Assembly: GCA_910587445.1 (NCBI GenBank)
Contig: CAJULE010000001.1
Location: 99,748-163,747 of the forward strand
DNA length: 64,000 bases
Source: an uncultured Christensenellaceae bacterium
Lineage (GTDB): Bacteria > Bacillota > Clostridia > Christensenellales > Pumilibacteraceae
Reading direction: 5' to 3'
Shown: one piece after another, positions 2,346 through 49,736 of the stretch
Position numbering within the stretch: position 1 is the first letter of the stretch
Layout: every line of letters starts with the position of its first letter
Notes under the pieces: generated by a model
What the model saw: the letters and a program-made list of their open reading frames with translations, nothing else
What the model was told of the DNA's origin: nothing
Database searches by the model: none
Made by a program: the position numbers and the translations under genes

Positions 2346-3022
2346 TGGCGTTTTTCAGATACAAAAGAAATCTATATCCGCTTATAGCGATAGCGTCGGC
2401 GTTACTCATTATGGTGTTCGGTCTTGTTATGGCGCGGACGGAAAAGTGTTCGTATTTTTTGCTCGGCGCACTTGTGTGGGTGATACTTTTCGGTTGCTAT
2501 AAACAGGCGCTAAAAGCGTTGCCGCTTTTTATCGTGTTCGGCGGCGTGTTCTCGCTTATAGCGTACTTTTCAAGCGGCAAAAATTTCGACAGCGCACTTG
2601 CTATGGCTAATCGTTTAGGCGCGGTGTTTTTGGCGATAATTCCGAGTATGAGCATACAAGCAGTCGCTATGACGAGAAATTTATCGCAGTTACATACGCC
2701 GCGAGGAATAACGCTCGGTATGCTTATAACGATGTCGTTCATTCCCGTACTTCGAGCGGAAATAAAACGCGTGCGCGAAGCGATGAAAACACGCGGTGCA
2801 GGGAGTATTCTCAATCCGAAAATCTTTTACCGTGCGTTCTTGATTCCGCTTGTAACACGGCTTGTCGATATATCCGATACGCTTAGCGTCTCTATCGAAA
2901 CGCGCGGTTTTACGCTCGGAAAATCAAAGTACACGGTCTATAAAAAGGAAGCAATAAATTATATGGATGTAGTGTATTTGCTCGGTCTGATTGCAGGCGT
3001 GGTTTTGTGCGTCGTCTTATAA
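2345..3022 (+). CDS. ecfT: energy-coupling factor transporter transmembrane (T) component, CbiQ/EcfT family
   Basis: Multi-TM protein between the S-component candidate and the duplicated ATPase. Conserved EcfT-like C-terminal coupling region (RAEIKRVREAMKTRG). Confidence 0.65.
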   Translation: MAFFRYKRNLYPLIAIASALLIMVFGLVMARTEKCSYFLLGALVWVILFGCYKQALKALPLFIVFGGVFSLIAYFSSGKNFDSALAMANRLGAVFLAIIPSMSIQAVAMTRNLSQLHTPRGITLGMLITMSFIPVLRAEIKRVREAMKTRGAGSILNPKIFYRAFLIPLVTRLVDISDTLSVSIETRGFTLGKSKYTVYKKEAINYMDVVYLLGLIAGVVLCVVL

Positions 3023-3146
3023 GCGTCGCAATACAGCGTTGCGGTGCGCTTTTCTCGGGTCATTTACGTTTAAGTAAACTCCCCATCGAAAATGCTCCCG
3101 CGCCTTGTCTTGCTTGCTTCTAAAACGACTTATTTGAGAGGTAATT

Positions 3147-4571: not shown

Positions 4572-4613
4572 GCGGTAGCTTTTGTCGGTTTGGCTAATCT
4601 TGAGGATAGGGGC

Positions 4614-4652
4614 AAAAGAAAACGCGGCTCTCTCGGAGCCGCGTTTGTCTTT
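4614..4652. terminator. bidirectional rho-independent terminator between convergent ecfA and rubredoxin genes
   Basis: Perfect 11-bp stem aaacgcggctc / gagccgcgttt (4620-4630 / 4636-4646) with T-rich tracts on both strands. Confidence 0.55.
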
Positions 4653-4662
4653 CGCAGTAATG

Positions 4663-12350: not shown

Positions 12351-12382
12351 TTACGGAACATATTTAAAAAGGGGCAAAGATA

Positions 12383-14370
12383 ATGAAAAAGGCAATTTAC
12401 TCATTATGTGCGCTATGTATGGCGCTTGCAATCGTACTTATTCCCGTGAGTACTCTTGACGCTTTCGCTCTTAACGCGGACGCGGAGCCTATGGAAAAAA
12501 AGTGTTCTGCAGCGTGACTCTCGAGGACGACTTTGCGGAAGACGAAGTGGTAGTTACGATAAAAAATAAGGAAAGTTTAAAGTTCAAAAAATATGTAGCA
12601 AGTGATTTCGTCGATATCGGTTGTGAGTCGGTTGATGATTTGTCGATCGCATATGCCGATGATGTGCGAATACATAAGGATCATGCTTGTAAAAAGTCGG
12701 CTTTTGCAAAAGATTATAATCAGCTTCTTAGTCTTAAATTGAAAGAAAAGAGCAAAGAGAATGTTCTCGCGGCAATTAAGGTGCTTGAAAAGCGTGATGA
12801 TGTGCTTTCTGCTGAGCCGAGTTATATTTTGGATTCATTCGATAGTAATGTTGAGGAAAATAACGGGCATGGAATCGAACCAAATAAGGCAATAGGTGGT
12901 GGATTGCCTATAAATCCCGTGTTACCTGTAGTAAAGCCCACAAAGCTTCCTAACGACCCCGGGCGATCTCGGCAGTGGGCAATTGCAAGAATAAAGCTGC
13001 CCGAGGCATGGAACTATACCACGGGTTCGAGTGATGTTGTTGTTGGGGTTATAGACAGCGGTGTTGATTCTACGCATCCCGATTTACAAGGCAAAATCGA
13101 TACGTCGCTTAGCTATGATTTCGTAAATAATACATCTGCTATGCCTGCTACGTCAAGTCTTTTTTATCATGGGACAATGGTTGCGGGAATTATAGCTGCT
13201 CAGACCGACAATGGAGAATGAATTGCAGGCGCAGGGTGGAACGTAAGAATAGCTTCGCTAAGAGTTGGTGACAGCTTGGGTGGAATTAAAACCCCTTATG
13301 TCGTGTCGGCGATAGAATATGCTAGAATAAAAGGGATTCCTATTATCAATCTTAGTCTCGGGGGTAAACAAGACGACAGTAGGCTTCGCAGTGCAATAGA
13401 AAAATATACAGGGGTAATAGTGTGTGCAGCCGGAAATGCCGAAGCGGATAATGATGACAGCAAAAATGCAGTTTATCCGGCGAGTTATAGCTATAGAGAA
13501 AACTTAATATCCGTAGGAGCAAGTGATACAGAGGATAAAAGATTTATAAATGGCGGCACAGGTTCCAATTATGGGAAAACGACAGTAGATTTATTTGCTC
13601 CGGGAGCCAACATATATTCTACGATGATACAAGGGCGTTATCAAGGGTCATGCTCCGGTACGAGTTATTATGAGTCGGACTCCGGGACGTCGTATGCCGC
13701 ACCATATGTTTCGGGTGTTGCCGCATTGTTGCTTTCAAGATTTCCGGAACTTACTGCTGCGGAAATTAAAGACGCTATAAAGAACAATGTCAGTAAAGTG
13801 AGCGCACTCAGTGACCTGTGTGTTTCGGGTGGTAGACTTAATGCCTTAAATGCGCTTATTGGTTTACATTCGGGTCATAGATACGGGCAATCCTATTCAT
13901 TTGTATCGCAAACACAACATGCATCATTCTGCGAATGTGGGGATCATAAACTTGAGCCACATTGGGCATATTCTTCTTCCTTACGTATGTACAACGGACA
14001 TCGATATGCTACTTGTGCGTGCTGTAAATATGAAATAAATATCGATAATAATCCCATAATTGTAATAAGCAATTCAGCTCCCGGAGAGCTTGAACTTATG
14101 GGGCTTAAAGTGGTAGAAAGTCCAAAGCAGCTTGTGCAGGCGCTTTCTCAAAATTTTCGGCAAACAAGTTCTTTGAAAATGGAAGCTGTCCTGTCATATT
14201 ATGATGAAGAGTTTTTTGAGACATATGCAATAGTCCTGTCCGATGATTTTGATATGGAACGTGTCGTAGAGTCTCTGTATTCGAATATAATAGAGTGTAG
14301 AAAATACATTGACAAAGAAGGAAATTTTTGGTATGATACAGACAATAACTATGAGGAGATATATGCATGA
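12383..14370 (+). pseudogene. secreted subtilisin-like (peptidase S8) serine protease, disrupted by a frameshift in an A7 run and an in-frame TGA; C-terminal about 120 aa is a novel tail domain
   Basis: Signal peptide ORF (12383-12510) ends after an A7 run. Adding one A fuses it in frame to the I9 propeptide-like region of the 12502 ORF. The Asp box VVGVIDSGVD and the His box HGTMVAGIIAA are followed directly by TGA (13219-13221) at the position of the conserved Gly of the subtilisin NxxGxG(V/I)AG motif. The same frame continues into ORF 13276-14370 with the Asn (LSLGG) and Ser (GTSYAAPYVSG) boxes. AT-rich relative to its flanks. Confidence 0.7.
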
Positions 14371-14969: not shown

Positions 14970-16181
14970 ATGAGTGAGAAAAGAGCGATTGTCGTCGGAG
15001 CCGGACTTTCGGGTGCGACGGTTGCGCGCACGCTTGCCGAAGGCGGCGTGAAGGTCACGGTTTGGGAGAAGGAAAAGTATGTCGGAGGCGCGATTTCCGA
15101 CTATAGAAAGGACGACTATTTCGTTCAGCGTCACGGTCCGCACCTCTTCCATACGAGCAGCGAAGCGGCGTACGCCTTTCTTTCGCGCTTCACCGAGTGG
15201 TTCGACTATCGCCACACGGTGCGCGCGCACATAACGAGCAAGTATATCGATCGCTACACATTAAGCACGGACATAAAAGACAAGTATATTCCCGTGCCGT
15301 TCAATTTTACTTCGCTTGAAGCGCTCTATCCCGCGGACAAGGCGAAGAAGATAGAGAGCGCGCTTGTCGGCAAGTACGGTGCGGACGCTGCCGTTTCCAT
15401 TTCCGAGCTTCGTTTGAATCCCGATCCCGAAATAAAGGAGTTTGCGGAATTTGTCTACGTAACCGTTTTTAAGTACTATTCGTTCAAGCAGTGGGGGCTT
15501 GACATGGCGGCGATAGATCCCGCCGTATTTAAGCGGGTGCCCGTAAGGACGGGATACATCGACGGTTATTTTGCGGATAAATACCAGGCTATGCCGAAAG
15601 ACGGATTTTCCGCAATAATCGAGAATATGCTAAAGAGTGAGAACATAACCGTCAAAACGGGCGTGGACGCGATCTCCCGTCTCGCGGTAAAGGACGGAAA
15701 GCTCGAGATCGACGGAAAGCCCGCAGATTGTCCCGTCATATTTACGGGCTGTATAGACGAGCTGTGCGGCGACAGGTTCGGGCGGCTTCCGTACCGTACG
15801 CTTCGCTTCGATCTCAAGGAAGAGAATACGCCGTCTTTCCAGCCGTACGGAGTCGTAAACTACACCGTCACCGAACCCTTTACGCGCATATCCGAATTCA
15901 AGAAGTTTACGGTCGAGAACTCGAAAGCAAAGACGAGCGTTACGGTGCGCGAGTACCCGCGCTCATACGATCGCGAAAGCGAACTTTCTCCTTACTATCC
16001 CATGCCGACTGCGGACGCAAAGGAGAGCTACGCAAAGTATGCCGAGTATGTAAAGGACATAAAAAATCTTTACTTCGCAGGTCGACTCGGCAGTTATGTG
16101 TATGTCAATATGGATAAAGCGGTGGACAGGGCTCTCGATTTGGGAAAGCATCTGCTCGAAACCGCTTTTGCCGCAAAATAG
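14970..16181 (+). CDS. glf: UDP-galactopyranose mutase
   Basis: N-terminal FAD-binding GAGLSG motif. Glf-characteristic blocks: YSFKQWG, KRVPVRTGYIDGYFADKYQAMPKDG, GRLPYRTLRFD and C-terminal FAGRLGSYVYVNMD. Confidence 0.85.
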   Translation: MSEKRAIVVGAGLSGATVARTLAEGGVKVTVWEKEKYVGGAISDYRKDDYFVQRHGPHLFHTSSEAAYAFLSRFTEWFDYRHTVRAHITSKYIDRYTLSTDIKDKYIPVPFNFTSLEALYPADKAKKIESALVGKYGADAAVSISELRLNPDPEIKEFAEFVYVTVFKYYSFKQWGLDMAAIDPAVFKRVPVRTGYIDGYFADKYQAMPKDGFSAIIENMLKSENITVKTGVDAISRLAVKDGKLEIDGKPADCPVIFTGCIDELCGDRFGRLPYRTLRFDLKEENTPSFQPYGVVNYTVTEPFTRISEFKKFTVENSKAKTSVTVREYPRSYDRESELSPYYPMPTADAKESYAKYAEYVKDIKNLYFAGRLGSYVYVNMDKAVDRALDLGKHLLETAFAAK

Positions 16182-16356: not shown

Positions 16357-17523
16357 ATGGATAAACCCAGAGTGGTATTTCCGTTTGTCGAAGCGGGTTT
16401 CGGACACATAATGCCGATGACCGCCGTTTCGCAGGCGTTCGAGGAAAAGTACGGCGACAGGTGCGAAGTCGTCAAGACCTATTTCTATCAGGATACGGGA
16501 AATCCCGTAATGAAAGCCATAGAGGACGATCTCATAAACGAAGTGCGCAAGCACAATCACCACAAGATAAACGGCATAATGCAGTTTGCGCTTATGGCGC
16601 TCGTCGGGCAGAAGGCGTCGATGTCCTATCTTTTCAACACGCGCTATAAAAAAGGCAGACAGGCGTGCATGGACTATATGATGAGCTTAAAGCCCGACCT
16701 TATACTGAACACGCACTTTTCGACGCTGTATTTTGCCAACCAGTGCCGCGAAAAGCTCGGTCTCGATACGGATATAGTCGCGTACTGTCCCGACCCGATC
16801 GTAGGGCGGCAGTGGGACAAACGCACGGATCTCATAGTATTGAGCTCGGAAAACGGCAAAAAACAGGCGATAAAGAAATTGAAGCTCAAGCCCGAACAGC
16901 TTGCTACCGTGCCTTTCATGCTCCGAAAAACGGTCGAAAACTACGACAAGGGCAAGCAGTACTATCGCGAGCTTCACGGTCTCGACAAGGATAAATTCAC
17001 CGTGCTTTTGGTAGACGGAGCATACGGAGAGGGCAAGCTCGAAAAGACTGCCGAAGCGCTTTCAAAGACCGATATGAACCTCAACGTCGTTGCCGTCTGC
17101 GGCAAAAACGAGCCGCTGTACGAACGGCTGAGCAAGCTCGAAACGAAGGAAAACATCACGTTCAAGGCGTACGGTTTCACCGATAAGATGCTCGAACTCA
17201 ATGCGGCGGCGGATCTTTTCGTCGGAAAAAGCGGCGCGAGCAATCTTGCCGAATCGAGCTATCTCGAGGTGCCGCAGATAATTACGCTTTACGCTACGCC
17301 CATAGAAAAGTGGATAGGCGAGTACTATATCGACGAGGTGGGTACGGCGATAAAGCTCGACAAGATAGACGATATAGTGAAAAAGATAGGCGAGTACTAC
17401 TCTTCGCCCGAAAAGATGCAGCCGTATATCGACGCGTGCAAGACCGTCAAGACGACTGCCGGCGGGGAAATGCTTGCCGATATATTGTTCGAGCGGCTCA
17501 AAGTCCGTTTTCCCGAGCTTTAA
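16357..17523 (+). CDS. GT28-family glycosyltransferase, MGDG-synthase / UgtP(YpfP)-like (glycolipid synthase candidate)
   Basis: N-terminal MGDG_synth-like region with GFGH motif, and a C-terminal GT-B nucleotide-sugar-binding half. Adjacent to glf. Confidence 0.65.
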   Translation: MDKPRVVFPFVEAGFGHIMPMTAVSQAFEEKYGDRCEVVKTYFYQDTGNPVMKAIEDDLINEVRKHNHHKINGIMQFALMALVGQKASMSYLFNTRYKKGRQACMDYMMSLKPDLILNTHFSTLYFANQCREKLGLDTDIVAYCPDPIVGRQWDKRTDLIVLSSENGKKQAIKKLKLKPEQLATVPFMLRKTVENYDKGKQYYRELHGLDKDKFTVLLVDGAYGEGKLEKTAEALSKTDMNLNVVAVCGKNEPLYERLSKLETKENITFKAYGFTDKMLELNAAADLFVGKSGASNLAESSYLEVPQIITLYATPIEKWIGEYYIDEVGTAIKLDKIDDIVKKIGEYYSSPEKMQPYIDACKTVKTTAGGEMLADILFERLKVRFPEL

Positions 17524-26685: not shown

Positions 26686-26819
26686 AAGACGCAAAAGTAA
26701 TAACAAAAATTTAAACGTCGGTTGGCTTCGGGCTCTTAAGGGCTAGAGTTCTGACGTTTTTTTTGACGTTTTCCGTGGCTCTCCCCATGAATTTATCCTT
26801 ATTTTTTCCAAAAGTCCCC

Positions 26820-26848
26820 TTGACGAGCTCACGAAAGCATGATATAAT
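26820..26848 (+). promoter_or_regulatory. strong sigma-A-like promoter (TTGACG-N17-TGATATAAT, extended -10)
   Basis: TTGACG at 26820-26825, TATAAT at 26843-26848 preceded by TGa. Confidence 0.5.
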
Positions 26849-26902
26849 TTAAGTACGATATTACTTATAATTACTCTTCCCGGGTCTTTTTCGGTCGGAG
26901 AG

Positions 26903-27184
26903 TTGGAGACTATGGGACTGAGAGTAATAGAAAGTCCTACCGAGCTTGCAAATGAAATATGTACTTTGGAAAATGTTTCGGAATACTATCGAATAAATGA
27001 GATATTATCGCATTATGATGAACTGTTTTTTGAAAAGTATAATATTGTAATAGCCGATAATACGGATAAGAGCAATATCATAGATAATTTGCATATGAAT
27101 ACAGTAGAGAATAGTAAAAATATCGGACAAAAAGAAAGTATATTATTCGGCAAAGATTGTGAGTTCGAGGAGGTATATGTATGA
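26903..27184 (+). CDS. small cytoplasmic protein (93 aa) homologous to the C-terminal tail of the S8 protease at 13990-14370; first gene of cassette copy 2
   Basis: MGLRVIESPTELANE...LSHYDELFFEKYNIVIADN... aligns with LMGLKVVESPKQLVQ...LSYYDEEFFETYAIVLSDDF... of the protease tail. RBS GGAGAGTTGGAG. Confidence 0.55.
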   Translation: METMGLRVIESPTELANEICTLENVSEYYRINEILSHYDELFFEKYNIVIADNTDKSNIIDNLHMNTVENSKNIGQKESILFGKDCEFEEVYV

Positions 27185-28338
27185 AAAAGAAAATAATTTC
27201 GTTATTTGTCGTATTGACGTTTTGCATAAGCGTTGTTTTTTGTGCGTGCGGCGGCGCGGGCAATAAGTCGGGTAAAGACGATATACCTTTAACTTCGGAA
27301 GAGATACTAGAGATAAAAAAGGCATATTGCGATATAATGTATAACGGCAGGAAAACAGCCGTAGCGGACGAAATTATCGAGATATTTTCTTATTACGGAA
27401 ATTACGACGGGGCAATCGTAGTCACTGTCGACGGCAAGACGGGGATAAGTTCTTATCGGTCCAACCGTTTCACGGCGATGGGATATGAGTTTGTCGGGAC
27501 GCCGAAATCACTTTTTAAAGTGTATAAAGACGGCGAGATGAAGAGTTTGGATGAGGCGTGCGAAAACGGGTGGCTTAAGGAAGAAGACATAAAAGCCGTT
27601 CATGAAATATATGCCGAGGAATATGCAGTATATTACAAAGACGCTTCGGCAACCGAAGATTACGAAAAGATAAGAGTACAGTTCAACGAACAAATCGGTG
27701 CGGCTTCAAGCGATTGCGATGTTTTTTATACGAGCTTGGGCAGCTACGCTTCTACCGAAGTGCTTTCTCTCGAATCGGAGGATTTTTGGAGAAATTCTCA
27801 TTCCGCGACTTGTAAGGCGGGAGAAGCGACGTTTAATCTTTCGGGAATGACTGAACTTCGGGCGTACAGAGACGGCGTATTGCATACGGTGGAATCCGCT
27901 TATGAAAACGGGTGGCTTACGGCGCAGGATATCGAAAAAGCGCTTGCATTGCATAAAGCCATGTACCCGTATGTGTATATAAGCCGAGAAGAAGCGCCGA
28001 GCGCAGACGAAAAGACCAAAGAGAAAATGGCGCGGGAATACTATGAGAAAAGTTTAAAACTCAATTACGAGAACGTAAAAGCAAGCCAAGTGCAAGCAGA
28101 CGCTTTTTACGGGGAATATTCGGGCGCAAGCGTTTATCATTTTACTACTCCGCTTGCGAGCGTTACTGCGTGCGTAACTTGCATTTTGGGCGGAGTGGTG
28201 TTCGGATTCGGATCGCCCATGCAAGTTCTCGAAGTATATAAAGACGGAAGCTTTTTGAGCTTAGAAGCGGCATACAGAACGGGGTGGCTTTCGGTAAGCG
28301 ATTTGAGAGCGTTGCAGTCTTTGTATTACTTGCGCTGA
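27181..28338 (+). CDS. repeat lipoprotein, copy 2 (385 aa) with three about 35-aa Y[KR]DG...A[YC]ENGWL..DI repeats
   Basis: Start overlaps the previous stop (ATGA). Signal + lipobox SVVFCACG nearly identical to 14367-14825. Repeats at about residues 113-150, 228-265 and 352-385. Confidence 0.65.
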   Translation: MKKKIISLFVVLTFCISVVFCACGGAGNKSGKDDIPLTSEEILEIKKAYCDIMYNGRKTAVADEIIEIFSYYGNYDGAIVVTVDGKTGISSYRSNRFTAMGYEFVGTPKSLFKVYKDGEMKSLDEACENGWLKEEDIKAVHEIYAEEYAVYYKDASATEDYEKIRVQFNEQIGAASSDCDVFYTSLGSYASTEVLSLESEDFWRNSHSATCKAGEATFNLSGMTELRAYRDGVLHTVESAYENGWLTAQDIEKALALHKAMYPYVYISREEAPSADEKTKEKMAREYYEKSLKLNYENVKASQVQADAFYGEYSGASVYHFTTPLASVTACVTCILGGVVFGFGSPMQVLEVYKDGSFLSLEAAYRTGWLSVSDLRALQSLYYLR

Positions 28339-31216: not shown

Positions 31217-31630
31217 ATGGAGGACAAGAAAATGATACATCTCATCTACGGGGCAAAAGGCAGCGGCAAGACGGTAAAGATTATGGACGCCGTCAACGAC
31301 AAGTGCAAGGGGGCGGACGCAAACGTCGTGTTTATAACCGACAACGACCGTTCGCTCGGCATAGACAAAGCGGTGCGTTTCGTAAACGTCAAGGAGTACG
31401 ACATCAAGTGGGATTGCTGTCTCGTCGCATTCTTAAAAGGTATGCTCGCGGCAAACAGCGACAATACGGCTTTTTACATCGACGGCATTTCGCGCTTTAC
31501 GAAGAAGAAGCCCGAGGAGCTCGAGGAACTCATGACCGAGCTTGAAGATATCTCCGCAAAGTTCGGCGTCGATCTCACTCTCACTATTTCGACGGATACT
31601 TTGCCTAAGTTTATGATGAAGTACGTTTAA
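31217..31630 (+). CDS. small (137 aa) P-loop NTPase-like protein of unknown function
   Basis: Walker A GAKGSGKT near the N-terminus. A Walker-B-like hhhhDG (AFYIDGIS) occurs about 85 residues later. RBS GGAGGAC upstream. Confidence 0.45.
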   Translation: MEDKKMIHLIYGAKGSGKTVKIMDAVNDKCKGADANVVFITDNDRSLGIDKAVRFVNVKEYDIKWDCCLVAFLKGMLAANSDNTAFYIDGISRFTKKKPEELEELMTELEDISAKFGVDLTLTISTDTLPKFMMKYV

Positions 31631-31657
31631 TGCCCGGAGCCGTATTCATCGTCTAAG

Positions 31658-31884
31658 ACGGGTTGCGTGTGACGCTTTGCCTCGGTTGTGTACATCAAAG
31701 TACACGCCCTCGGCACACGTCGCCTGCTACCCGCCTTAGACGCGACTACGGCTTCGGGAGTGTCGGGAATAGTGGCAACGGGTTGCGTGCTTCTTGCCGC
31801 TCGGGCGCTGTACGGTGTGGTACAGCAACCCGAGCGTCTCGTCGCCTGCTACCCGCCTTAGGCGCGACTACGGCTTCGGGAGTG
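31658..31884 (+). repeat. tandem pair (about 105 nt units, period about 120) of GC-rich structured intergenic repeats upstream of thrC
   Basis: Unit A is 31658-31762, unit B is 31778-31884. Shared blocks: acgggttgcgtg...tcgcctgctacccgccttag(a/g)cgcgactacggcttcgggagtg. Each unit carries a central gtacN6gtac hairpin with compensatory changes (gtgtac/gtacac vs ctgtac/gtacag). Confidence 0.5.
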
Positions 31885-31969
31885 ATTTGGTATAAAGCAA
31901 TCGGCTATGTGCGGCGCACGTAATATGCCGAACGTGCACACGAATTTACGGTGCTTGGAGGAGCAGACA

Positions 31970-33448
31970 ATGAACTATATTTCCACGAGAAACGCGTCCT
32001 TGAAAGTGAGCGGCGCAGAAGCGATCGTCGGCGGCATAGCTCCCGACGGCGGTCTTTATGTGCCCGAGGTCATACCCGAGGTCACGGCGAAGGAAAGGGA
32101 AGCCCTTGCTGAAATGGACTATCCCGCGCGTGCCGCTTTCATAATCGGAAAGTATTTGCCCGAGCTTAAGGACGAGCTTCTTTCTTGGTGCGAAAAGGCG
32201 TATTCGCGGTTCGACGGAGATCCCGCGCCGCTCGTGAAAATAGAGGACAATTTCTATCTTCTCGAACTGTGGCACGGACCGACGCACGCATTTAAGGATA
32301 TGGCGCTCACGCTTTTGCCCTATCTCCTTACGGGAAGCAAGCGCGTGCTAAAACGCACGGACAGGACGCTCATACTCGTCGCGACGAGCGGCGACACGGG
32401 CAAAGCGGCGCTCGAGGGGTTTAGAGACGTCGACGGCACGGATTGTATAGTGTTCTATCCGAGCGGCGGAGTAAGCGAGCTTCAGCAGCTTCAAATGCAG
32501 ACGCAGAAGGGCGGAAACGTATACGTGTCGGCAATCGAAGGTAATTTCGACGACGCGCAGAGCGCAGTCAAAAAGATATTCACGGACGATTCCGTAAGGA
32601 ATAATCTTGCCTCACTCGGATATAATCTGTCGAGTGCGAACTCGATAAATTGGGGACGGCTCGTGCCGCAAATAGCTTACTATTTTTCGGCGTATGCGGA
32701 CCTTGTGTCGAGCGGAGAGATCGAGGACGGCGACAAGGTCGCGTTCAGCGTTCCGACGGGCAATTTCGGGAACATCCTCGCGTGCTATTACGCGATGCGC
32801 ATGGGACTTCCCGTCGAGCGCCTCGTGTGTGCTTCCAACGACAACAACGTGCTCACCGACTTTTTCGATACGGGCATATACGACGTGCACCGCGAATTTT
32901 ATAAGACGATAAGTCCGTCCATGGACATACTTGTCTCGTCGAATTTCGAAAGGCTTCTGTTCGAAGTCTCGGGTCGTGACGATGAGCTTACGGCTCGCCG
33001 CATGAACGAACTGAAAGAGAACGGAAAGTATGTCGTGAGCGACGGGGAGCTTGCAAAGCTGTCGGAGCTGTTCTTTGCCGACTATGCAAGCGACGAAATA
33101 ACGAAAGAGACGATAGGGGGCTTTTTCGAGGACACCGGCTATATTCTCGATCCTCACAGCGCCGTCGCGGTTTCCGCCGCCGACGCATATGTCGGAAGCG
33201 ACGAGATCCCCATTGTCACGGTTTGTACGGCAAGCCCATATAAATTCGTCGGCTCGGTGCTCGAAGCCATAGGCGAAAGCGTGCCGAAAAGCGCTATTAA
33301 GGCTCTCGTAAAGCTCGAGAACGAAACGGCTTTGCCGCTTCCCGAAAGTCTTAAGGAGCTCGAAACGCTCGAAAAGAGATTTACGGGCGTAGTCGGCAGG
33401 GACGGTATAGAGGGCGTTGTCATGAAATACGCAAAGGAGCGGGCATAG
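31970..33448 (+). CDS. thrC: threonine synthase
   Basis: PLP-lysine motif PTHAFKDMAL. SGDTGKAA. Overall ThrC length and domain order. Start ATG 31970 with GGAGGAGCAGACAATG. The ORF-track start 31907 lacks an RBS. Confidence 0.85.
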   Translation: MNYISTRNASLKVSGAEAIVGGIAPDGGLYVPEVIPEVTAKEREALAEMDYPARAAFIIGKYLPELKDELLSWCEKAYSRFDGDPAPLVKIEDNFYLLELWHGPTHAFKDMALTLLPYLLTGSKRVLKRTDRTLILVATSGDTGKAALEGFRDVDGTDCIVFYPSGGVSELQQLQMQTQKGGNVYVSAIEGNFDDAQSAVKKIFTDDSVRNNLASLGYNLSSANSINWGRLVPQIAYYFSAYADLVSSGEIEDGDKVAFSVPTGNFGNILACYYAMRMGLPVERLVCASNDNNVLTDFFDTGIYDVHREFYKTISPSMDILVSSNFERLLFEVSGRDDELTARRMNELKENGKYVVSDGELAKLSELFFADYASDEITKETIGGFFEDTGYILDPHSAVAVSAADAYVGSDEIPIVTVCTASPYKFVGSVLEAIGESVPKSAIKALVKLENETALPLPESLKELETLEKRFTGVVGRDGIEGVVMKYAKERA

Positions 33449-33450
33449 AA

Positions 33451-34452
33451 TTGGAACAGGATAAGAAAAGAGTTTTCTCCGCGATACAGCCCACAGGCGG
33501 TATCACGATAGGCAACTATATAGGCGCGGTGCGCAACATGGTCGCAATGCAGGACGAATACGAGTGTCTGTATGCGGTCGCCGATCTCCACAGCCTCACC
33601 GTGGACATAGCGCCGGCGGCGCTGCGCAAGAATACTATCGAGCTTGCCGCTCTTCTGATCGCGGCGGGTATCGATCCCGAAAAGAGCATATTTTTCGTGC
33701 AGTCGCAGGTGCACGAACACGCCGAGCTCGGCTGGGTGCTCAACTGCTATGCGCAGTTCGGCGAAGCGCGCAGAATGACGCAGTTCAAGGACAAGAGCGC
33801 CAAGGCTCCCGAAAACGTAAACGTCGGACTGTTCGACTATCCCGTTTTGATGGCTGCGGACATACTCCTTTATATGACGGACTACGTCCCCGTAGGCAAG
33901 GACCAGGTACAGCACCTCGAACTGAGCCGCACGATTGCCGAGCGCTTCAACAACCGCAATTCGCCGACGTTTAAGGTTCCCGAGGCAATACTTCCGAAGT
34001 TCGGACAGAAGGTGCGCTCGCTTGTCGATCCGACGGCGAAGATGTCGAAGTCGGACAGCGACCCGAACGGATATGTGCTCGTGCTCGACAGACCGGAGGA
34101 CATTGCGAGAAAGTTCAAGCGCGCCGTCACGGACAGCGACGCAAGGATCGTATATGCGCCCGAGGAAAAGCCGGGCATAAGCAATCTTCTTACGATATAT
34201 TCGGCGTTTGCGGACGCGGATATGGAGGAGAGCGTGAAGCGTTTCGAGGGAAGGGATTACGCCTATCTCAAGTCGACCGTCGCCGACGCGGTGATAGAGG
34301 GCTTGCGTCCGATACGCGAAAGCTTCGACATGATCATGCGGGATAAGAACGAGCTGATGAAAAAGCTCGAAACAGGCGCGGAAAAGGCGTCTTACATCGC
34401 TCGGCGCACGATGTCCAAGGTCTGGCGAAAGCTCGGCTGCGTTAGACCGTAA
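33451..34452 (+). CDS. trpS: tryptophan--tRNA ligase
   Basis: Class I HIGH-like TGGITIGNY and KMSKS motifs. 333 aa. Confidence 0.9.
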   Translation: MEQDKKRVFSAIQPTGGITIGNYIGAVRNMVAMQDEYECLYAVADLHSLTVDIAPAALRKNTIELAALLIAAGIDPEKSIFFVQSQVHEHAELGWVLNCYAQFGEARRMTQFKDKSAKAPENVNVGLFDYPVLMAADILLYMTDYVPVGKDQVQHLELSRTIAERFNNRNSPTFKVPEAILPKFGQKVRSLVDPTAKMSKSDSDPNGYVLVLDRPEDIARKFKRAVTDSDARIVYAPEEKPGISNLLTIYSAFADADMEESVKRFEGRDYAYLKSTVADAVIEGLRPIRESFDMIMRDKNELMKKLETGAEKASYIARRTMSKVWRKLGCVRP

Positions 34453-38441: not shown

Positions 38442-39131
38442 ATGAAACACGGAAAGAAATATATGGCGTCTATGAAAGAAGTCGATTTGACCGTCGCTTA
38501 CGACACCGCAGAGGCCGTAAACAACGTGCTTAATACGGCAAAGGCGAAATTCGACGAAACGATAGAGCTTCACGTTCGCCTCGGCGTAGATCCCCGTCAG
38601 GCGGACCAGCAGGTGCGCGGCACCGTCGTCCTTCCCAACGGAACGGGTAAAACGGTTAAGGTGCTCGTAATAGCAAAGGGCGATAAAGCCGACATAGCTA
38701 CGAAGGCGGGAGCGGACATCGTAGGTGCGGAAGAGATAATCGCAAAGATCATGAACGAAAACTTCCTCGACTTCGACGTGTGCATAACCTCGCCCGACAT
38801 GATGGGTCAGATGGGTAGAGTGGCAAGAATCCTCGGTCCCCGCGGACTTATGCCTTCGCCTAAGAGCGGCACGGTCACGACCGACATCGCAAAGGCGATT
38901 GCCGACACCAAGGCAGGTAAGGTCGAGTACCGCGTAGACAAGACGGCTATCATTCACTGCCCGATAGGCAAGAAGTCGTTCGGCACGGAGAAGCTCGTCG
39001 AGAACCTCAACGCGCTTATGGACGCTATCGTTCGCGCAAAGCCCGCTGCGGCAAAAGGCACGTACGTAAAGAGCGTGTACTGTGCGTCGACTATGGGCCC
39101 CGGCGTTAAGGTCAATTATAAAATAAACTAA
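38442..39131 (+). CDS. rplA: 50S ribosomal protein L1
   Basis: Canonical L1 sequence, 229 aa. Confidence 0.95.
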
Positions 39132-39162
39132 CCCAAAGCCGACAGCGTATGCATCGACGGAT

Positions 39163-39260
39163 ACGGGCTACGTTCGGCTCGCCGTCTCGGTTACGTACGA
39201 GTAAGTACGCGCCCTCGGCGTCTCGCCGACAGTTGCCCGTCTGCGCCGCGCCTCCGCTGT
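39163..39260 (+). repeat. third copy of the GC-rich hairpin repeat family (see 31658-31884), upstream of the rplJ promoter
   Basis: acgggctacg...tcggttacgtacgagtaagtacgcgccctcggcgtctcgcc... parallels unit A of the thrC-upstream repeats: acggg, tcggtt, gtacN6gtac hairpin, cgccctcggc, tcgcc. Confidence 0.4.
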
Positions 39261-39374
39261 CGTACAAACATTAGTTTGTAGTTCTTTGTGTAGAAATGGC
39301 GCTTTATGTGCCGTAAATTACACCAACACAACAAAATATCCCTTTCGTAGAAAACAAGTGTCCGTACGGATATA

Positions 39375-39484
39375 ATGGGAAACCGCTTGTCGAGAAAGAT
39401 CGGATTTAAATCGATACGGTTTATCTTTTCGGTCTCGGCGCGTTTATTGCGAAGGGACCGAATTTTTAAAGGAGGTAAAACAAA
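39375..39484 (+). promoter_or_regulatory. putative rplJ (L10) autoregulatory leader region downstream of a TATAAT -10 box
   Basis: TATAAT at about 39368-39373. The structured, GC-rich leader that follows sits upstream of the L10 leader. Identity inferred from context, no structure computed. Confidence 0.35.
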
Positions 39485-39979
39485 GTGTCCGAACAGATAA
39501 TGAAGCTTAAACAGCAGGAAGTCGAAGGGCTTTCCGAAAAGTTCGCCAAGGCAAAAGGTATCGTGCTCGTGGATTACCGCGGCATGACGGTTGCCGAGGA
39601 CACCGCTCTGCGCAACGAAATGCGCAAGAACAACGTGGAGTACAAGGTCGTCAAAAACCGCATAATGCTCCGTGCGTTCGAAAAGGCGGGTTATACGGGA
39701 CTCGAGGACGTACTTCAGGGAACGACGGCAGTCGCAATTTCTTACGACGACCCCGTTACGCCCGCGAAGGTGCTTTCCGACAATGCGAAGAAGATAAACA
39801 AGACGGCGCTTAAAGGCGGCGTAATAGAAGGAAGCGTGATGGACGAGAAGGCGATCAAGTCGGTTGCCGCTATCCCGCCCAAGACGGTGCTTCTGTCCCA
39901 GCTTGTGGGACTGCTCACTTCGCCCATGCGTTCGCTCGCGGTCGGTCTTTCCGAAGTCGCAAAGAAGCAGAGCGCGTAA
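39485..39979 (+). CDS. rplJ: 50S ribosomal protein L10
   Basis: GTG start 10 nt after AAGGAGG. Canonical L10 sequence. Confidence 0.9.
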   Translation: MSEQIMKLKQQEVEGLSEKFAKAKGIVLVDYRGMTVAEDTALRNEMRKNNVEYKVVKNRIMLRAFEKAGYTGLEDVLQGTTAVAISYDDPVTPAKVLSDNAKKINKTALKGGVIEGSVMDEKAIKSVAAIPPKTVLLSQLVGLLTSPMRSLAVGLSEVAKKQSA

Positions 39980-44494: not shown

Positions 44495-46963
44495 ATGAAA
44501 AAATTTCGGTACAGCCTTTTGCTTGTCGTCGTTCTTGCGCTATGCGCGGGAGTCTTTGCGGCTTGCGACGGCGAAAAGGTGTCGGTGTCGCTCGACGCAA
44601 ACGGCGGCACGTGTACGGTGCAGACGGTTACGGCGCAGGTGGGCAAAAAGCTCGCGCCCGTGCCGGCAGCCGAGCGCGACGGTTATGTGTTCGAGGGCTG
44701 GTTTAAAAGCGCTTCGGGCGGCGAGCGGTGGAACTTCGAGACGGATAAGGTCAAGGGCTCAATGACGCTTTACGCGGGTTTCCGCCCTCAGACGAGCGAT
44801 TTTGTCGGCGTCACTTACCATGTGGGCGACGGAGTCGATTCCGCACCCGTAAGCCGTGACGTGAGAAAGGGCAATCTTTTGCCCGTGCCGTCCGACCCCG
44901 TGAAAGACGGCTATCGTTTCGACGGCTGGTTCAAAGACAGCGAGTGTAAATCGGCTTGGGATTTCGGTTCCGATACCGTGGACAGCGAACTTACGCTGTA
45001 CGCAAAGTGGTCGAAGATACATACGGTTACGGTCATGCACGGACAGGAGCGTATCGCGAGCGTAGCATACGAGGACGGCGCGGCGCTCAGGAACATATTG
45101 CCGCTTATAGACGGACTTGTGTATACGGGGCTTTACGAGGACGCGGAGTTTAATTCCGAAGCCATGGCGAACTCTGCCGTCACTAAGGACGTCACATATT
45201 ATGCTCGGTACGAAAAGCCGACGCCCGAAAGCTTTTTCGATTACGAAAGCGAATACGGATATGTGAATATAAAAGGTCTTAAGGACGAATTCGATGGAGA
45301 CGAGGTGATCATTCCCGAATCCATTTTGGGAATACCGGTAAGAAACGTGTCGTTCGATTCGTCCGACAGGTACAATCGCGTAGTCATCTCTTCGAATGTC
45401 ATCAGTTTCGATACCCATGTCAGTACCGAAAAGCTTGTCATTTCACCCGCCAACGTAAATTACGCCACATACGACGATTGCATATACAGGAAGGAATCCC
45501 ACGGCAATCGTTGTTATCTCATGCACATTCCCGAAAATAAGCGTGTAATAACCGTAATGCCGGGTGCGCAAATAAGCGGAACAAGTAGTGACGGGAAAAT
45601 TTTCGTTCTTTCCGACGACGCATATGCTCATGAAAACGATTCTCTCGATTATAAACGCATAGTTGTTCCCGACGAGTATTACAACGATTATTCCGGACTT
45701 ATGTCGAACGTCGAAGGTTATTTGTTCCGTAAGTCGGAGATGACGGGCACGATGCTTGCGAAAAACGGCAAGCTGTATATGTGGATCGAGGGAGACAAGG
45801 CGACGGTCGGAACGGACGACGACGGCATAACCGAAATAGTCGACGGAGCTCTTTACGGCGTGCACGAAGTGACGTTCGGCGAAAACATAACCTCTATAGA
45901 GGGCAAGCTGTTTTCGAATTGGTCGAGCACGAACGGGAAAGCCGACAGCTATAAGTATACTTTTCTCGGAAGCGTGCCGCAAAGAACGACGGCTTACGAG
46001 TTCTTTCCGCAAGTTTACGATGTCGAGGGCGATACTTTGGAGATAAAGGTCAAGAAAGAGTACGTCACGGCTTATAAAGACGATTGGAATATGGACTATT
46101 ATCAGTTCAAGCTTGTGAGCGGCGAAACCTCTCTTGTGGAGGACGGCAAGCTCATCGCCTGGTTCGGAGGCGACACCGCCGTCGTGGGCACTGCGACGGA
46201 CGGCATAACCGTGATAGGCGACGGTGCGCTTTACGGTGTGCACGACATCACCATAGACGAGGGAATAGCCGAAATCGAGGGATATAATATACTCGCCGGT
46301 TACGAATACGGGCGTATTCATAATATAAGCGTAACTTTCTTGGGCGATTTGCCCGTCCTGAACGGATTATATTGTCCCATAAACACGAGAAACGGAAGCA
46401 CGTTTGTCGTGAACATTCCCGAGCAGTACGTAGAAAAATACGCGAAAAAGCTTGTCGATGTATGGAAGTATGTGAAGATCGACACCGAGGACGAATTTAC
46501 CGTAATAAACGGCGAGCTTTACAAGTATAACGGCAACGATACGGAGATCCATATTCCCGCAGGCGTCGTCGACGTAAGGAACAACGCGCTTCCCGAAAAC
46601 ATGACAAAGCTGTATTTAGCAAGGACGGAAACGAACAGAGATCTTGATATAAGTATTTTCGGCTTGAATCTTATTTCGGACCGACTCGACGTATATGTGT
46701 CGAACGGACATTTTACCGTTTCCGAAGGAAGCGGAACTCGCGACGTATATGTAAGGTATAGATTCGATTACCTGCGGTTCTTTTCGGTAGACGAGATCGG
46801 TAACGAAAACGACAAGGCGGGAACGGTCACATTCCACGTCGATACGTCGGATACGACGGCGCTCGAATACTATACGAAATATTGTAAGGACGCGGAATCG
46901 AATTCTTCGTCTGTTTATACGAAATACGAAGCTGTAGAGTGGGAGGCGGACGCTAATGCTTGA
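44495..46963 (+). CDS. large surface lipoprotein with Listeria-Bacteroides (Flg_new/InlB-B-like) repeats followed by BspA-type LRR_5 repeats
   Basis: Signal + lipobox LALCAGVFAAC. Three about 70-aa repeats with GY.F.GWF....W.F motif. Later repeats of the DGALYGVHE/DITF type. 822 aa. Confidence 0.7.
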   Translation: MKKFRYSLLLVVVLALCAGVFAACDGEKVSVSLDANGGTCTVQTVTAQVGKKLAPVPAAERDGYVFEGWFKSASGGERWNFETDKVKGSMTLYAGFRPQTSDFVGVTYHVGDGVDSAPVSRDVRKGNLLPVPSDPVKDGYRFDGWFKDSECKSAWDFGSDTVDSELTLYAKWSKIHTVTVMHGQERIASVAYEDGAALRNILPLIDGLVYTGLYEDAEFNSEAMANSAVTKDVTYYARYEKPTPESFFDYESEYGYVNIKGLKDEFDGDEVIIPESILGIPVRNVSFDSSDRYNRVVISSNVISFDTHVSTEKLVISPANVNYATYDDCIYRKESHGNRCYLMHIPENKRVITVMPGAQISGTSSDGKIFVLSDDAYAHENDSLDYKRIVVPDEYYNDYSGLMSNVEGYLFRKSEMTGTMLAKNGKLYMWIEGDKATVGTDDDGITEIVDGALYGVHEVTFGENITSIEGKLFSNWSSTNGKADSYKYTFLGSVPQRTTAYEFFPQVYDVEGDTLEIKVKKEYVTAYKDDWNMDYYQFKLVSGETSLVEDGKLIAWFGGDTAVVGTATDGITVIGDGALYGVHDITIDEGIAEIEGYNILAGYEYGRIHNISVTFLGDLPVLNGLYCPINTRNGSTFVVNIPEQYVEKYAKKLVDVWKYVKIDTEDEFTVINGELYKYNGNDTEIHIPAGVVDVRNNALPENMTKLYLARTETNRDLDISIFGLNLISDRLDVYVSNGHFTVSEGSGTRDVYVRYRFDYLRFFSVDEIGNENDKAGTVTFHVDTSDTTALEYYTKYCKDAESNSSSVYTKYEAVEWEADANA

Positions 46964-49736
46964 AGTCAAAAACGTAACCAAAGTATACGGCGGCGGACGG
47001 AACGCATTTAAGGCGCTCGACGACGTAAGCATAAATTTCGGCTCTCGAGGGCTGGTGGTCGTGCTCGGCAAATCGGGCTGCGGCAAGTCGACGCTCCTCA
47101 ACATAATGGGCGGACTCGATTCTCCGACGAAGGGCGAAGTCGTAATAAACGGAAGAAGCACGAAAAGCTTTAAGCGCGCAGACTTCGACGCCTACCGCAA
47201 CACCTTTGTCGGCATAGTCTTTCAGGAGTTCAACCTCATAGACGAGATAAGCGTGTTCGACAACATAAACATGACGATGAAACTCCAGGAAAAGAGCGCC
47301 GACGTCAACACGGTCGACGAGGCGCTTGCCATGGTCGGACTCGCAAACCTCGGCTATCGCAAGCCGAGCGAGCTTTCGGGCGGACAGAGGCAGCGCGTCG
47401 CGCTTGCGAGAGCGCTTCTCAAAAAGCCCGAAATAATCCTTGCCGACGAACCTACGGGCGCGCTCGATTCGGTCACGAGCGAAGAGGTGTTCGAGACCTT
47501 AAAGCGTATTGCCCAAAGCAAGCTCGTCATAGTCGTCACGCACAACCGCGAGCTTGCTCACGCTTATGCCGACAGAATAGTCGAGATAGTCGACGGAAAA
47601 ATCGTCGGCGACAGAGTGCGCGAGACGGCGGCGGACGACGGCGTAAAGGAACTCGAAGCCGGCGTAATAGAGGTCGGCGCGGGCGGCAGGGTCACTGCGG
47701 AGCAACTCAACGCGCGGCTCAAAAAGGGCAAAACCAACTACATAGGCTTAAGCCACGAAAAGGACAGAATAGCTCTTGCCTATCCCGAAACGGTCGACGG
47801 ATTTTACGAGGCGCAGGATTCCGCGGCTTACAAAAAGACCGAACAGACCGACATAAAGACGGACAACAAGGAGTTTAAGCTCTCGAAAGGCGGGCTCACC
47901 TTTAAGGATTCGTTCAAGCTTGCGAGGGAGGGCACCAAGCGCGCGAAAAAGCGCTATCGCTTCCTTACCGCAATAACGACCATATGCTTTACGATGTTCT
48001 CGCTTGCCCTCATAATCGGCATGGTGAATCTTCCGTCGGTTGCGGCGAAATCGGCATTCGACAGCGGCGCGCAACCGCTTGTCGCGGTGGGCTATATAGT
48101 CGAAGATTCGACTATGCTCACTAAGATGACCGAAGAAAGGATAGACGCAGTGCGCGGAATAATGGGAGAGGACGGTGTGTGCGCTTCACTCGTATACACC
48201 ACGCCCATGTTTGCGGACAGGAGCGCCGACGAATACTACAACACAAACAATTGGGACGGGTTCTATCAGGAAGACGAAAGCTATTATTTCGGATCGGGAC
48301 TTACGGGATTTTCGTTCGACTGTTTCAACAACGTCATAGACTGCAACGACATTACGCAATTGGGACTGAATGCGGTCGTCGGCAAGACGACTTGCGCGGA
48401 CATGAGCGAAATCATAATCTCCGACTTTGCGGCGTACGTCATGACGCGCCGAGGCATAGTCGGCTACGACAAAGCCGGCAAGTACGGGATTCTCTATCCC
48501 GAAACGGTCGCAGACGTCGTAGGCTGCCGAATAGAGCTCGGCGAGACGGAGAAGTTCTACACCGTCGTCGGACTTTTCGGGACCGATTACGAAAGCTATA
48601 AGTCGATAATCGGAGGAAGTTCGCTCGACCCGAAAACTCAAGAGCTCACCGAGACGCTGGGCATAAACAGCGCCTTCCTTTACCGCACGATGATAGGCAA
48701 GATCGGTTTCGGTGCGGAACTCGCTTCGCAAAAGAAGACGAGCGGTCAGTCGTCGAACTATTCATATACCATATCGGCGTCGAATGTGCAAGGATATGTG
48801 CCGTTCAATTCGGTGGATAATTCCGATTTCACTTACAATCGCGAGAAATTCGAGCGCAATATGTATTGGTCCGCTACGGGCGATAATCATGACGAAGCGC
48901 CCGAAAAGCTCGGAGACGACGAAGTCATCGTCACTCTCGACGTCATAAGGGATCTTCTCGGTCTATACGACGTGGACGAGGCGAACATAAAAAACAACGC
49001 GCAGTTTATCACGCTTATGAACGCGCCTTGCACCTTCAAGCTGTATATGCGTTGGGACAGCAGCGTGGGAGAAGAAAAGCAGGTCAAAATCGCAGGCGTA
49101 ATGTACGATAACTACCCGAGAGAGCTCTATATGAGCGACAACATGATAGACGAGTACAGCAAAGGAATTACGTCGTACGATTTGATGTTCTTTTCTAAGG
49201 GCTCGACGCGCACGGGACTCGAAAGCAAGTTCTCGGCGCTCAAGAAGGACGGCTTCGTGTTCGGTACGGCTACGGCGGACTTGCAGAGATTGCGCGAATT
49301 CGACGATATGCTCAACATAATGGGACAGGTGTTCTTCTACATTGCCATAGCGATGTTGGTGCTTGCCTTCCTGATTACGTTCAACTATATGACATCGTCC
49401 ATACGCTTCAGGACCAAGGAGATAGCCGTATATCGCGTCATAGGCGCAAAGACTTTCGACGTATCGAAAATATTCCTTACGGAAGGCGGCTTCATTGTCG
49501 TAAAGACCACGATCGCGGCGATAATCCTTTCGTTCGTGATGTCGCTTATTCTGAACAGCATTATGGGAAGCATATTGTCGGCGTTCGGACTTGCCGTGAC
49601 CCTCATAAACTTCAATTGGCTCATAGAGCCCATAGTGATACTTATCGGCAGTGCGATCACGGTGTTCTTGTCCTCTATAATACCCATTATGCGTGTGTGC
49701 GGAAAGAAACCCGTCGAAGCGGTAAAATTGATATAA
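46956..49736 (+). CDS. ABC transporter, fused ATP-binding domain + FtsX/MacB-type permease (926 aa)
   Basis: Walker A GKSGCGKST, signature LSGGQRQRVALARA, Walker B ILADEPTGALD. C-terminal 4-TM FtsX-like domain with a large extracytoplasmic loop. Start overlaps the lipoprotein stop. Confidence 0.85.
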   Translation: MLEVKNVTKVYGGGRNAFKALDDVSINFGSRGLVVVLGKSGCGKSTLLNIMGGLDSPTKGEVVINGRSTKSFKRADFDAYRNTFVGIVFQEFNLIDEISVFDNINMTMKLQEKSADVNTVDEALAMVGLANLGYRKPSELSGGQRQRVALARALLKKPEIILADEPTGALDSVTSEEVFETLKRIAQSKLVIVVTHNRELAHAYADRIVEIVDGKIVGDRVRETAADDGVKELEAGVIEVGAGGRVTAEQLNARLKKGKTNYIGLSHEKDRIALAYPETVDGFYEAQDSAAYKKTEQTDIKTDNKEFKLSKGGLTFKDSFKLAREGTKRAKKRYRFLTAITTICFTMFSLALIIGMVNLPSVAAKSAFDSGAQPLVAVGYIVEDSTMLTKMTEERIDAVRGIMGEDGVCASLVYTTPMFADRSADEYYNTNNWDGFYQEDESYYFGSGLTGFSFDCFNNVIDCNDITQLGLNAVVGKTTCADMSEIIISDFAAYVMTRRGIVGYDKAGKYGILYPETVADVVGCRIELGETEKFYTVVGLFGTDYESYKSIIGGSSLDPKTQELTETLGINSAFLYRTMIGKIGFGAELASQKKTSGQSSNYSYTISASNVQGYVPFNSVDNSDFTYNREKFERNMYWSATGDNHDEAPEKLGDDEVIVTLDVIRDLLGLYDVDEANIKNNAQFITLMNAPCTFKLYMRWDSSVGEEKQVKIAGVMYDNYPRELYMSDNMIDEYSKGITSYDLMFFSKGSTRTGLESKFSALKKDGFVFGTATADLQRLREFDDMLNIMGQVFFYIAIAMLVLAFLITFNYMTSSIRFRTKEIAVYRVIGAKTFDVSKIFLTEGGFIVVKTTIAAIILSFVMSLILNSIMGSILSAFGLAVTLINFNWLIEPIVILIGSAITVFLSSIIPIMRVCGKKPVEAVKLI

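Follow-up and report, generated by a model that had tools for sequence, protein, structure and literature searches.

Introduction

Small hairpin repeats of the MITE (miniature inverted-repeat transposable element), ERIC, Correia, RUP and REPIN kinds often lie at the 3' ends of genes, are co-transcribed, differ between strains and sometimes modulate mRNA stability (PMC3184786, PMC3733652, PMC3116915). ERIC sequences carried in an mRNA affect its stability via RNase E (PMC3184786). The subject here is a hairpin repeat of comparable size in a 64-kb stretch of DNA (contig CAJULE010000001.1; the whole stretch is referred to as the window) from an uncultured gut bacterium of the Christensenellaceae, where the gap upstream of thrC is largely taken up by two GC-rich units in tandem. 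This tandem is probably a pair of adjacent copies of an interspersed, non-coding, imperfect palindrome of ~125 bp, of the MITE/ERIC/REPIN kind. The copies are dispersed, fold into hairpins with compensatory changes in the stem, are present in some strains and species and absent from others, keep to a rule of position and orientation with respect to genes, and have a tip that is conserved across phyla. A literature search by sequence and keyword gave no description of this hairpin family.

Copies of the repeat in the window

The 339-bp gap upstream of thrC holds two tandem units (31632-31760 and 31763-31884), which have an exact 12-nt block in common (31658-31669 and 31778-31789) as well as a 45-nt block that is 98% identical (31718-31762 and 31840-31884); between these shared direct repeats (D1 and D2) the interiors differ. 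The shared blocks had already been noticed in a first-pass annotation made from the letters alone, and the repeat as such is confirmed, but the limits then given to it (31658-31762 and 31778-31884) were too narrow. Much the same applies to a third member placed between rplA and rplJ at 39163-39260: the copy is real, but it actually spans 39138-39264. The similarity between the 31.7-kb and 39.2-kb copies is significant, since the local alignment of unit 1 with unit 3 scores 40, compared to 16.7 +/- 2.6 for dinucleotide shuffles (z = 9.1), and none of the 500 shuffles attained the observed score. Further copies were also sought, and two that had gone unnoticed were found in the window: unit 4, which was located by an alignment scan and then aligned and folded, and unit 5, which was located by a covariance model. 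In all, the window has five ~125-bp copies, spread over four loci and found on either strand. The copies and the features next to them are as follows.

31632..31760, + strand: unit 1, a complete 129-nt imperfect hairpin that starts 2 nt past the TAA stop codon of the 137-aa gene
31763..31884, + strand: unit 2, the tandem partner of unit 1, with the same 45-nt 3' arm
39138..39264, + strand: unit 3, a hairpin between rplA and rplJ, 7 nt past the rplA stop codon
16208..16332, - strand: unit 4, inverted, between glf (14970-16181, +) and a glycosyltransferase gene (16357-17523, +)
3010..3133, + strand: unit 5, a diverged copy between cbiQ/ecfT (2345-3022) and ecfA (3147-4571)
31217-31630: conserved 137-aa open reading frame (ORF), directly 5' of unit 1
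31885..31969, + strand: 85 nt between unit 2 and thrC, outside the repeat, with the Shine-Dalgarno sequence GGAGGAG at 31958-31964
31970-33448: thrC (Pfam)
33451-34452: trpS (Pfam)
38442-39131: rplA (Pfam)
39485-39979: rplJ (Pfam)

Each of the five copies folds into one long imperfect hairpin. For unit 1, with its 5' foot at 31633-31657, the fold has an energy of -77.1 kcal/mol (z = -10.2), and the inverted repeats I1 and I3 were detected; unit 2 has no 5' foot and an interior unlike that of unit 1. The tips read GTGTAC-ATCAAA-GTACAC in unit 1, CTGTAC-GGTGTG-GTACAG in unit 2, CGTAC-GAGTAA-GTACG in unit 3, GTAC-N5-GTAC in unit 4 and TTTAC-GTTTAA-GTAAA in unit 5. The compensatory change between the central GTAC-N6-GTAC tips of the first two units (GTGTAC/GTACAC versus CTGTAC/GTACAG), to which the first-pass annotation had drawn attention, is real and, not being limited to the tip, extends to the whole stem. 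Half of the eight GTAC-N4-9-GTAC sites in the 64-kb window are tips of repeat hairpins.

The covariance model (R1) was built from eight Christensenellales copies. It gives 134 bits on unit 1, which is one of its training members, and 47.5 bits (E = 1e-8) and 37.5 bits (E = 2e-6) on units 2 and 5, respectively, which are both outside the training set. Three or four oddly long GC-rich intergenic regions of the window, which has a GC content of 0.51 and its genes mostly on the + strand, find their explanation in one repeat.

Differences between strains and related species

Alleles of the thrC gap were compared among contigs that encode an identical ThrC protein (L-numbers denote the loci or contigs compared with the window). 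Most strains have a gap of 339 bp that holds two units, whereas in L002 and L004 unit 2 is absent and the gap, with a single complete unit, measures 217 bp. The two alleles differ by exactly 122 bp, a segment bordered by the 45-nt direct repeat, while the adjoining stretch 31885-31969 has one single nucleotide polymorphism only between one-unit and two-unit strains. At the rplJ site, strain L007 has the 5' half of unit 3 swapped for a different AT-rich hairpin that resembles unit 5 (tip GTAC-N6-GTAC). Unit 4 is present in all 9 strain contigs compared.

The sister genomes L013 (uncultured Christensenella sp. MGBC137892) and L024-L026 (ThrC 91% identical) have a single unit, of different interior, at the thrC site, and L024, the only sister locus that reaches the rplJ site, has one unit there too. 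Between the sister genomes and the window, the feet of the thrC-site copies differ by paired changes (e.g. CCCGGAGCC/GGCTTCGGG versus CTCGAAGCC/GGCTTCGAG). In species with a ThrC that is 82, 79 or 72% identical, the thrC site is occupied by unrelated, shorter hairpins, and L031, the only one of these relatives to reach rplJ, has no element at the rplJ site.

The junction of cbiQ and ecfA offers the clearest case of an empty site. The two genes overlap (ATGA), without an element, in three relatives (L169, L170/171 and L172/173, with EcfA 91, 87 and 85% identical), whereas ~125 bp fill the junction in the window and, as an orthologous copy, in L174 (EcfA 83% identical). As the flanks of the window are nearer to those of the empty-site L169 than to those of the filled L174, an independent insertion or a transfer is implied. 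Two copies occur in 13 kb of L174, and none in ~55 kb of the empty-site relatives L169-L173. In the window, the TAA stop codon of cbiQ falls within the conserved 5' block of unit 5 and the Shine-Dalgarno sequence of ecfA (GAGAGG) lies downstream; two overlapping, translationally coupled genes were separated by the insertion, which brought a new stop codon and a new ribosome-binding site. As a separate observation, the L170 locus (2126-3410 and 12366-13482; also L171) contains a DDE_Tnp_1 transposase and a serine recombinase within 10 kb of ecfA, and L170/L171 have an 83-aa fragment with a weak Y1_Tnp match within the same distance; no hairpin elements were detected in the L170/L171 locus.

These comparisons bear directly on the position of the tandem upstream of thrC, which by itself would suggest a leader specific to thrC-trpS, with the two units as alternative structures (attenuator, riboswitch or T-box-like). 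The 5' foot of unit 1 can pair with the 3' arm of either unit (I3, I4), which superficially looks like a set of alternative pairings, and a transcription attenuator was among the options of the first-pass annotation. However, the same element follows rplA, glf and cbiQ, single-unit strains exist, and relatives with a thrC that is 72-82% identical have unrelated hairpins in place of the element. Moreover, the element abuts the upstream stop codon, from which it is 2 nt away, and is separated from thrC by 85 nt of unrelated sequence, and neither a leader peptide nor a U-tract terminator nor an Rfam match was found at the locus. A thrC-specific role is very improbable on these grounds, which removes the tempting reading as a thrC riboswitch or attenuator.

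With respect to known RNA families, the whole 64-kb window gave no match in Rfam 15 at the gathering threshold, not even to a tRNA, and nothing relevant appeared over 31400-32100 at E <= 10. Twenty metagenome loci with canonical copies gave no Rfam match to the element either, and E-value searches of L079 and L067 returned spurious matches to plant miRNA hairpins far below threshold. The T-box leader (RF00230), which had been discounted from the start, is ruled out by the lack of an Rfam match in the window, whereas that tool did detect one in locus L055.

The wider family

When metagenome contigs were scanned for the tip pattern TCGGTNNNGTACNNNNNNGTACNCNCCCT, at least 120 loci were returned. 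Among the matches listed, 91 of 121 tip matches have 30 or more base pairs around them, with ~1 being chance-like, and the covariance model returns full-length hairpins of 105-134 nt from the metagenome loci (GC 0.37-0.73). The consensus tip is YTCGGTYRCGTAC-N6-GTACGCKCCCTC; an A.C mismatch is present in 39 of the 47 copies, and positions outside those forced by the search pattern are also conserved. The arms have conserved blocks as well, TAT(A/T)(A/T)G.GTCGCAAT in the 5' arm and TGCTCGC(A/T)(A/T)CT in the 3' arm.

Among the carriers are AT-rich contigs from the human gut, of which one has a T-box and a tRNA close by, and, for a soil subfamily, contigs on which the neighbouring TreS is 86-89% identical to proteins from metagenome-assembled genomes (MAGs) of Terriglobales/Acidobacteria. 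With Firmicutes from the gut and Acidobacteriota from soil, the element is therefore found in at least two phyla. In the AT-rich gut family, a 100-nt core is 92% identical over 10 unrelated contexts, compared to 26% identity in the flanks. Tandem pairs recur in L050, L074 and L076, and L066 carries an array of at least 8 units. The L066 array (1-1100 of an AT-rich metagenome contig) runs head-to-tail with a period of ~120-125 nt, 3' of a canonical terminator, and its units have the family's tip motif; the arms of these units pair poorly outside the tip and foot, and the blocks TTGCGTCGTCG and CCTTGCGGCTTCG are retained.

The AT-rich relatives end in a T-run that pairs with a 5' A-run, and the window copies are without such a T-run. 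That the variable foot might be the stem of a pre-existing host terminator, with the core inserted in its loop, was considered and rejected: the foot AAAAAGTC/GACTTTTT recurs in at least 4 contexts, and as the same foot is found at several unrelated loci it belongs to subfamilies of the element. Taken together, the four loci, both orientations, the presence differences between strains and species and the wider family elsewhere bear out the suggestion of a REP-like (repetitive extragenic palindromic) repeat family in the first-pass annotation.

A scan of one genome per species with a pattern of the 3' arm gave the orthologous thrC copy in the related MAG L013 plus 12 chance matches, the window genome not being among the matches. 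None of 2.9 million viral contigs (IMG/VR) contains the tip pattern, canonical copies gave no blastn match in plasmids, and the window units gave none in phages; a phage or plasmid origin is unsupported by these searches.

Stem structure and polarity

The covariation that a selected structure should leave behind was sought and found, as 23 of the 39 predicted pairs show compensatory changes among the eight Christensenellales copies. In an alignment of 47 diverse forward-oriented copies, 87% of the cells are paired, compared to 57 +/- 0.9% once the columns are shuffled, and at least two Watson-Crick types are seen at 31 of the 39 pairs, although this alignment leans towards structure because it was fitted to the model.

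The reverse complement has the better predicted fold in all copies (44 of 44 in one set). The reverse strand was nevertheless dropped as the functional strand, since an asymmetry of mismatches explains the difference. Wobble pairs are near balance (208 forward versus 166 reverse), but the transversion mismatches on the forward (sense) strand are 665 Y.Y versus 113 R.R, and the energy model rewards the R.R (G.A) mismatches which these become on the other strand. Purines make up 42% of the forward strand, on which 36 Shine-Dalgarno-like words occur, versus 293 on the reverse strand. A further candidate property, a stop codon in every reading frame of the 5' arm, is not general, being seen in only 10-12 of 82 elements.

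Position relative to genes and transcription

For ~48 of 96 unique metagenome elements, an upstream ORF of 80 aa or more in the same orientation has its stop codon 51-69 nt before the centre of the tip, while on the opposite strand this is so for ~8. The stop codon typically falls inside the 5' foot or the conserved 5' block. In the window, units 1, 3 and 5 obey this rule and unit 4 breaks it. The orientation bias could be explained by selection against purine-rich, Shine-Dalgarno-like sequence in mRNA, and insertion at TA or TTA in or beside stop codons could account for the placement.

Because copies lie inside operons (cbiQ-ecfA, rplA-rplJ and glf-glycosyltransferase), they are almost certainly carried in mRNA. 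Signals of their own were not apparent: a simple scan of the + strand gave no terminator-like sites at the thrC or rplJ loci, i.e. no GC-rich stem-loop followed by a U-tract as expected for an intrinsic terminator, and no promoter-like site in 31885-31969. The thrC region has one weak (9/12) promoter-like match, which lies inside the upstream ORF (31589-31617), and the promoter-like site of rplJ (39348-39376) is downstream of unit 3. An independent small-RNA gene, also among the options of the first-pass annotation, is unsupported by these terminator and promoter scans of the two sites.

The combination of fold and placement would also suit a structured RNA that is selected by the host, i.e. 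a hairpin in 3' untranslated regions (3'-UTRs) or between cistrons, the tip of which (CGTAC-N6-GTACG, with a conserved A.C mismatch and a GG/CC clamp) would be bound by a conserved protein or nuclease and would set mRNA ends, stability or processing, its spread then being a matter of recruitment rather than of selfish transposition. The strong covariation of the stem, the paired changes between orthologous thrC-site copies, the strictness of the sense orientation and the position of the 5' foot at the stop codon, the pyrimidine-rich sense strand with its few Shine-Dalgarno-like words, and the sequence blocks and specific mismatches kept in at least two phyla are all in line with this. An RNA maintained for the host is, however, difficult to reconcile with the patchy occurrence among close relatives (three species with an empty cbiQ/ecfA site and no copy in their ~55 kb), with a copy number that varies between strains, and with one copy being inverted. 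Near-identical cores in unrelated contexts and tandem arrays are typical of selfish amplification, and there is neither a link to a particular gene class nor an Rfam match. A host-selected RNA is therefore considered unlikely.

The polarity of the hairpin could alternatively reflect movement as single-stranded DNA (ssDNA), as for an element of the REP/REPIN type that is moved by a single-copy HUH/Y1 transposase (RAYT-like or IS200/IS605-like) elsewhere in the genome. Conserved mismatches indeed give the hairpin a polarity, the strand bias is compatible with replication-coupled transposition of ssDNA, a relative (L170/L171) has the weak 83-aa Y1_Tnp fragment, and the 3' foot, read on the other strand, starts with GTAG (units 1, 2 and L059) beside CGTC motifs, although the GTAG and CGTC words near the foot are found in some copies only. 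REP superfamilies tagged by GTAG and CGTC are mostly located 3' of genes, and in many cases they combine by pairing into larger hairpins (PMC3733652). Yet no Y1_Tnp protein was found among the ~40 window proteins scanned, and the relative with that fragment showed no elements. The ~125-nt hairpin is continuous rather than made up of two REPs of 20-40 nt, REP families are as a rule confined to one lineage while the tip is cross-phylum, and the precise link to stop codons suggests a determinant related to genes rather than to replication. For these reasons, such an ssDNA element seems quite improbable.

A mobile non-coding repeat and its possible partner

The reading of the tandem as two copies of a mobile, MITE-like repeat accommodates most of these observations. 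The element is small, non-coding and dispersed (five ~125-bp copies spread over four loci, and ten contexts in the gut organism), and its arms fold into a long hairpin, though with the tip conserved above the termini. Filled and empty sites exist (cbiQ/ecfA, one versus two units at thrC and the replacement in L007). The element would be mobile now, or have been so recently, with new copies landing in the short gap past a stop codon, usually in the sense orientation and often beside or inside an existing copy, which would account for the tandem and 5'-truncated units. It would then be carried in mRNA as a long 3'-UTR or intercistronic hairpin and may affect the stability or processing of the mRNA or the translational decoupling of its neighbours. 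Transposition would presumably depend on a trans-acting enzyme for which the conserved tip and the foot-proximal blocks serve as recognition sites.

Several points weigh against this reading. Target-site duplication is not clearly seen: there is no clear one around units 1, 3 and 4, while T|A junctions stand at either end of 9 of the 11 copies in the AT-rich family. No transposase or recombinase was found by Pfam among the ~40 window proteins, and in 1.35 Mb of loci there are no split arms around a gene, as an autonomous parent would have (solitary half-tips in these 1.35 Mb are chance matches or degenerate copies). The DNA inserted between cbiQ and ecfA has TTA on both sides, but four adjoining cbiQ codons also differ, so that the junction is not that of a clean insertion. 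Current activity is unproven, because no strain seen lacks unit 4 or unit 5. The pattern of conservation is atypical for a MITE, with the tip and internal blocks kept across phyla and the termini variable. In addition, strict sense orientation and stem covariation fit a host-selected RNA function equally well.

It is possible, albeit doubtful, that the hairpin goes beyond a lineage-specific MITE and represents a class of structured elements that spans phyla (Clostridia and Acidobacteriota), characterised by a ~125-nt rod, a near-invariant tip, foot-proximal blocks, Y-Y mismatches on the sense strand and sense placement at stop codons. If the class is real, this pattern calls for a dedicated, conserved recognition partner and for targeting that is tied to gene ends. 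The partner could be a hairpin-specific transposase or recombinase, or else a conserved RNA-binding protein or nuclease; the two imperfect inverted arms of ~11 bp around a variable 6-bp spacer resemble the core site of a tyrosine recombinase. Such a partner, if it exists, would offer a handle on gene-end targeting and on the reshaping of operons by small hairpin elements. In any case, a hairpin family that is absent from Rfam keeps its tip from human-gut Firmicutes to soil Acidobacteriota, and, since copies are polymorphic between strains, they are possible strain markers for uncultured Christensenellales.

Other features of the window

The product of the ORF upstream of unit 1 (31217-31630) has a 132-aa counterpart in every relative down to a ThrC identity of 72%. 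It has weak, sub-threshold Pfam matches only (ATPase_2, AddB_N), adjoins an HMGL-like gene, and is a conserved small protein without an assigned function. The trpS gene starts 3 nt past the thrC stop codon (33448-33451), with no T-box, and metG (55989-57941) has no Rfam T-box match.

The region 5' of rplJ (39265-39484; CCTTTCGTAGAAAACAAGTG...GGACCGAATTTTTAAAGGAGG) folds and is conserved down to the species with a ThrC that is 72% identical (counterparts at L024 11255-11431 and L031 17089-17280). It is probably an L10 leader, yet had no Rfam match at the gathering threshold in the window.

Two adjacent paralogous genes (46956-49736 and 49750-52437) encode fused ABC ATPase-FtsX permeases of 926 and 895 aa and lie 3' of a gene for an 822-aa protein with Listeria-Bacteroides repeat domains. 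A subtilase (Peptidase_S8) gene is present as two ORFs (12502-13221, 239 aa, and 13276-14370, 364 aa) where strain L156 has a single 662-aa Peptidase_S8 product; the split is probably a frameshift or pseudogene in the window strain. Gene content differs between strains elsewhere too: L004 has a gene for a 656-aa Peptidase_S8 protein (2842-4812), between genes for 724-aa and 385-aa proteins, at the place where the window (~26700-27200) and other strains have a 90-aa ORF.

Comparison with known repeat systems

Integron attC sites are imperfect palindromes of a similar length (105-135 nt for the hairpins here) that lie directly past ORFs in a fixed orientation, have a conserved fold with unpaired bases that give polarity, and recombine as folded single strands, so that the elements might be thought of as attC-like, with structure kept above stem sequence and mismatches marking the strand. 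The feet, however, read CCCGGAGCC/GGCTTCGGG, CCGACAGC/GCTGTCG etc. and contain no core sites (RYYYAAC/GTTRRRY), there is no cassette array, no integron integrase was found in the window by Pfam, and the genes next to the elements are housekeeping genes in operons. What is conserved and what is variable is also the other way round, as the tip is conserved here and variable in attC. This makes a relation to attC scarcely conceivable.

REP, BIME and REPIN sequences resemble the element in being palindromic extragenic repeats, mostly downstream of coding regions and between co-directional or convergent genes, that often form larger hairpins and occur in clusters and tandems (PMC3733652, PMC3116915). 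Their definition is a different one, though: a REP is a unit of 20-40 bp with an unpaired GTAG/CGTC head and a REPIN consists of two REPs plus a spacer, while the element here is one continuous stem of ~125 nt with a conserved tip. No REP-associated tyrosine transposase (RAYT) is present in the window, and REP families are lineage-specific.

Correia/NEMIS elements of Neisseria and the RUP, BOX and SPRITE elements of Streptococcus pneumoniae share with the element that they are non-autonomous, ~100-160 bp in size and folded into long hairpins, that they are co-transcribed and polymorphic for insertion between strains, and that they show nested or tandem insertions (PMC3184786). They differ in that their terminal inverted repeats are conserved, their TA duplications are clear and each family is confined to one genus, whereas the element has variable termini, a conserved tip and duplications that are unproven.

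ERIC (or IRU), a MITE-like imperfect palindrome of ~127 bp, has the same size and likewise forms one long imperfect hairpin; it is transcribed, intergenic, often found at the 3' ends of genes or inside operons, in either orientation, and differs in copy number between strains, and TA at the termini is seen in some subfamilies of the element as well. The two have no sequence similarity, unit 1 having no blastn match in 5,426 complete genomes of E. coli, which carry ERIC. Whereas ERIC is restricted to Enterobacteriaceae and close relatives, the element has a tip and internal blocks that are kept in at least two phyla, and it follows a strong rule of sense orientation at stop codons.

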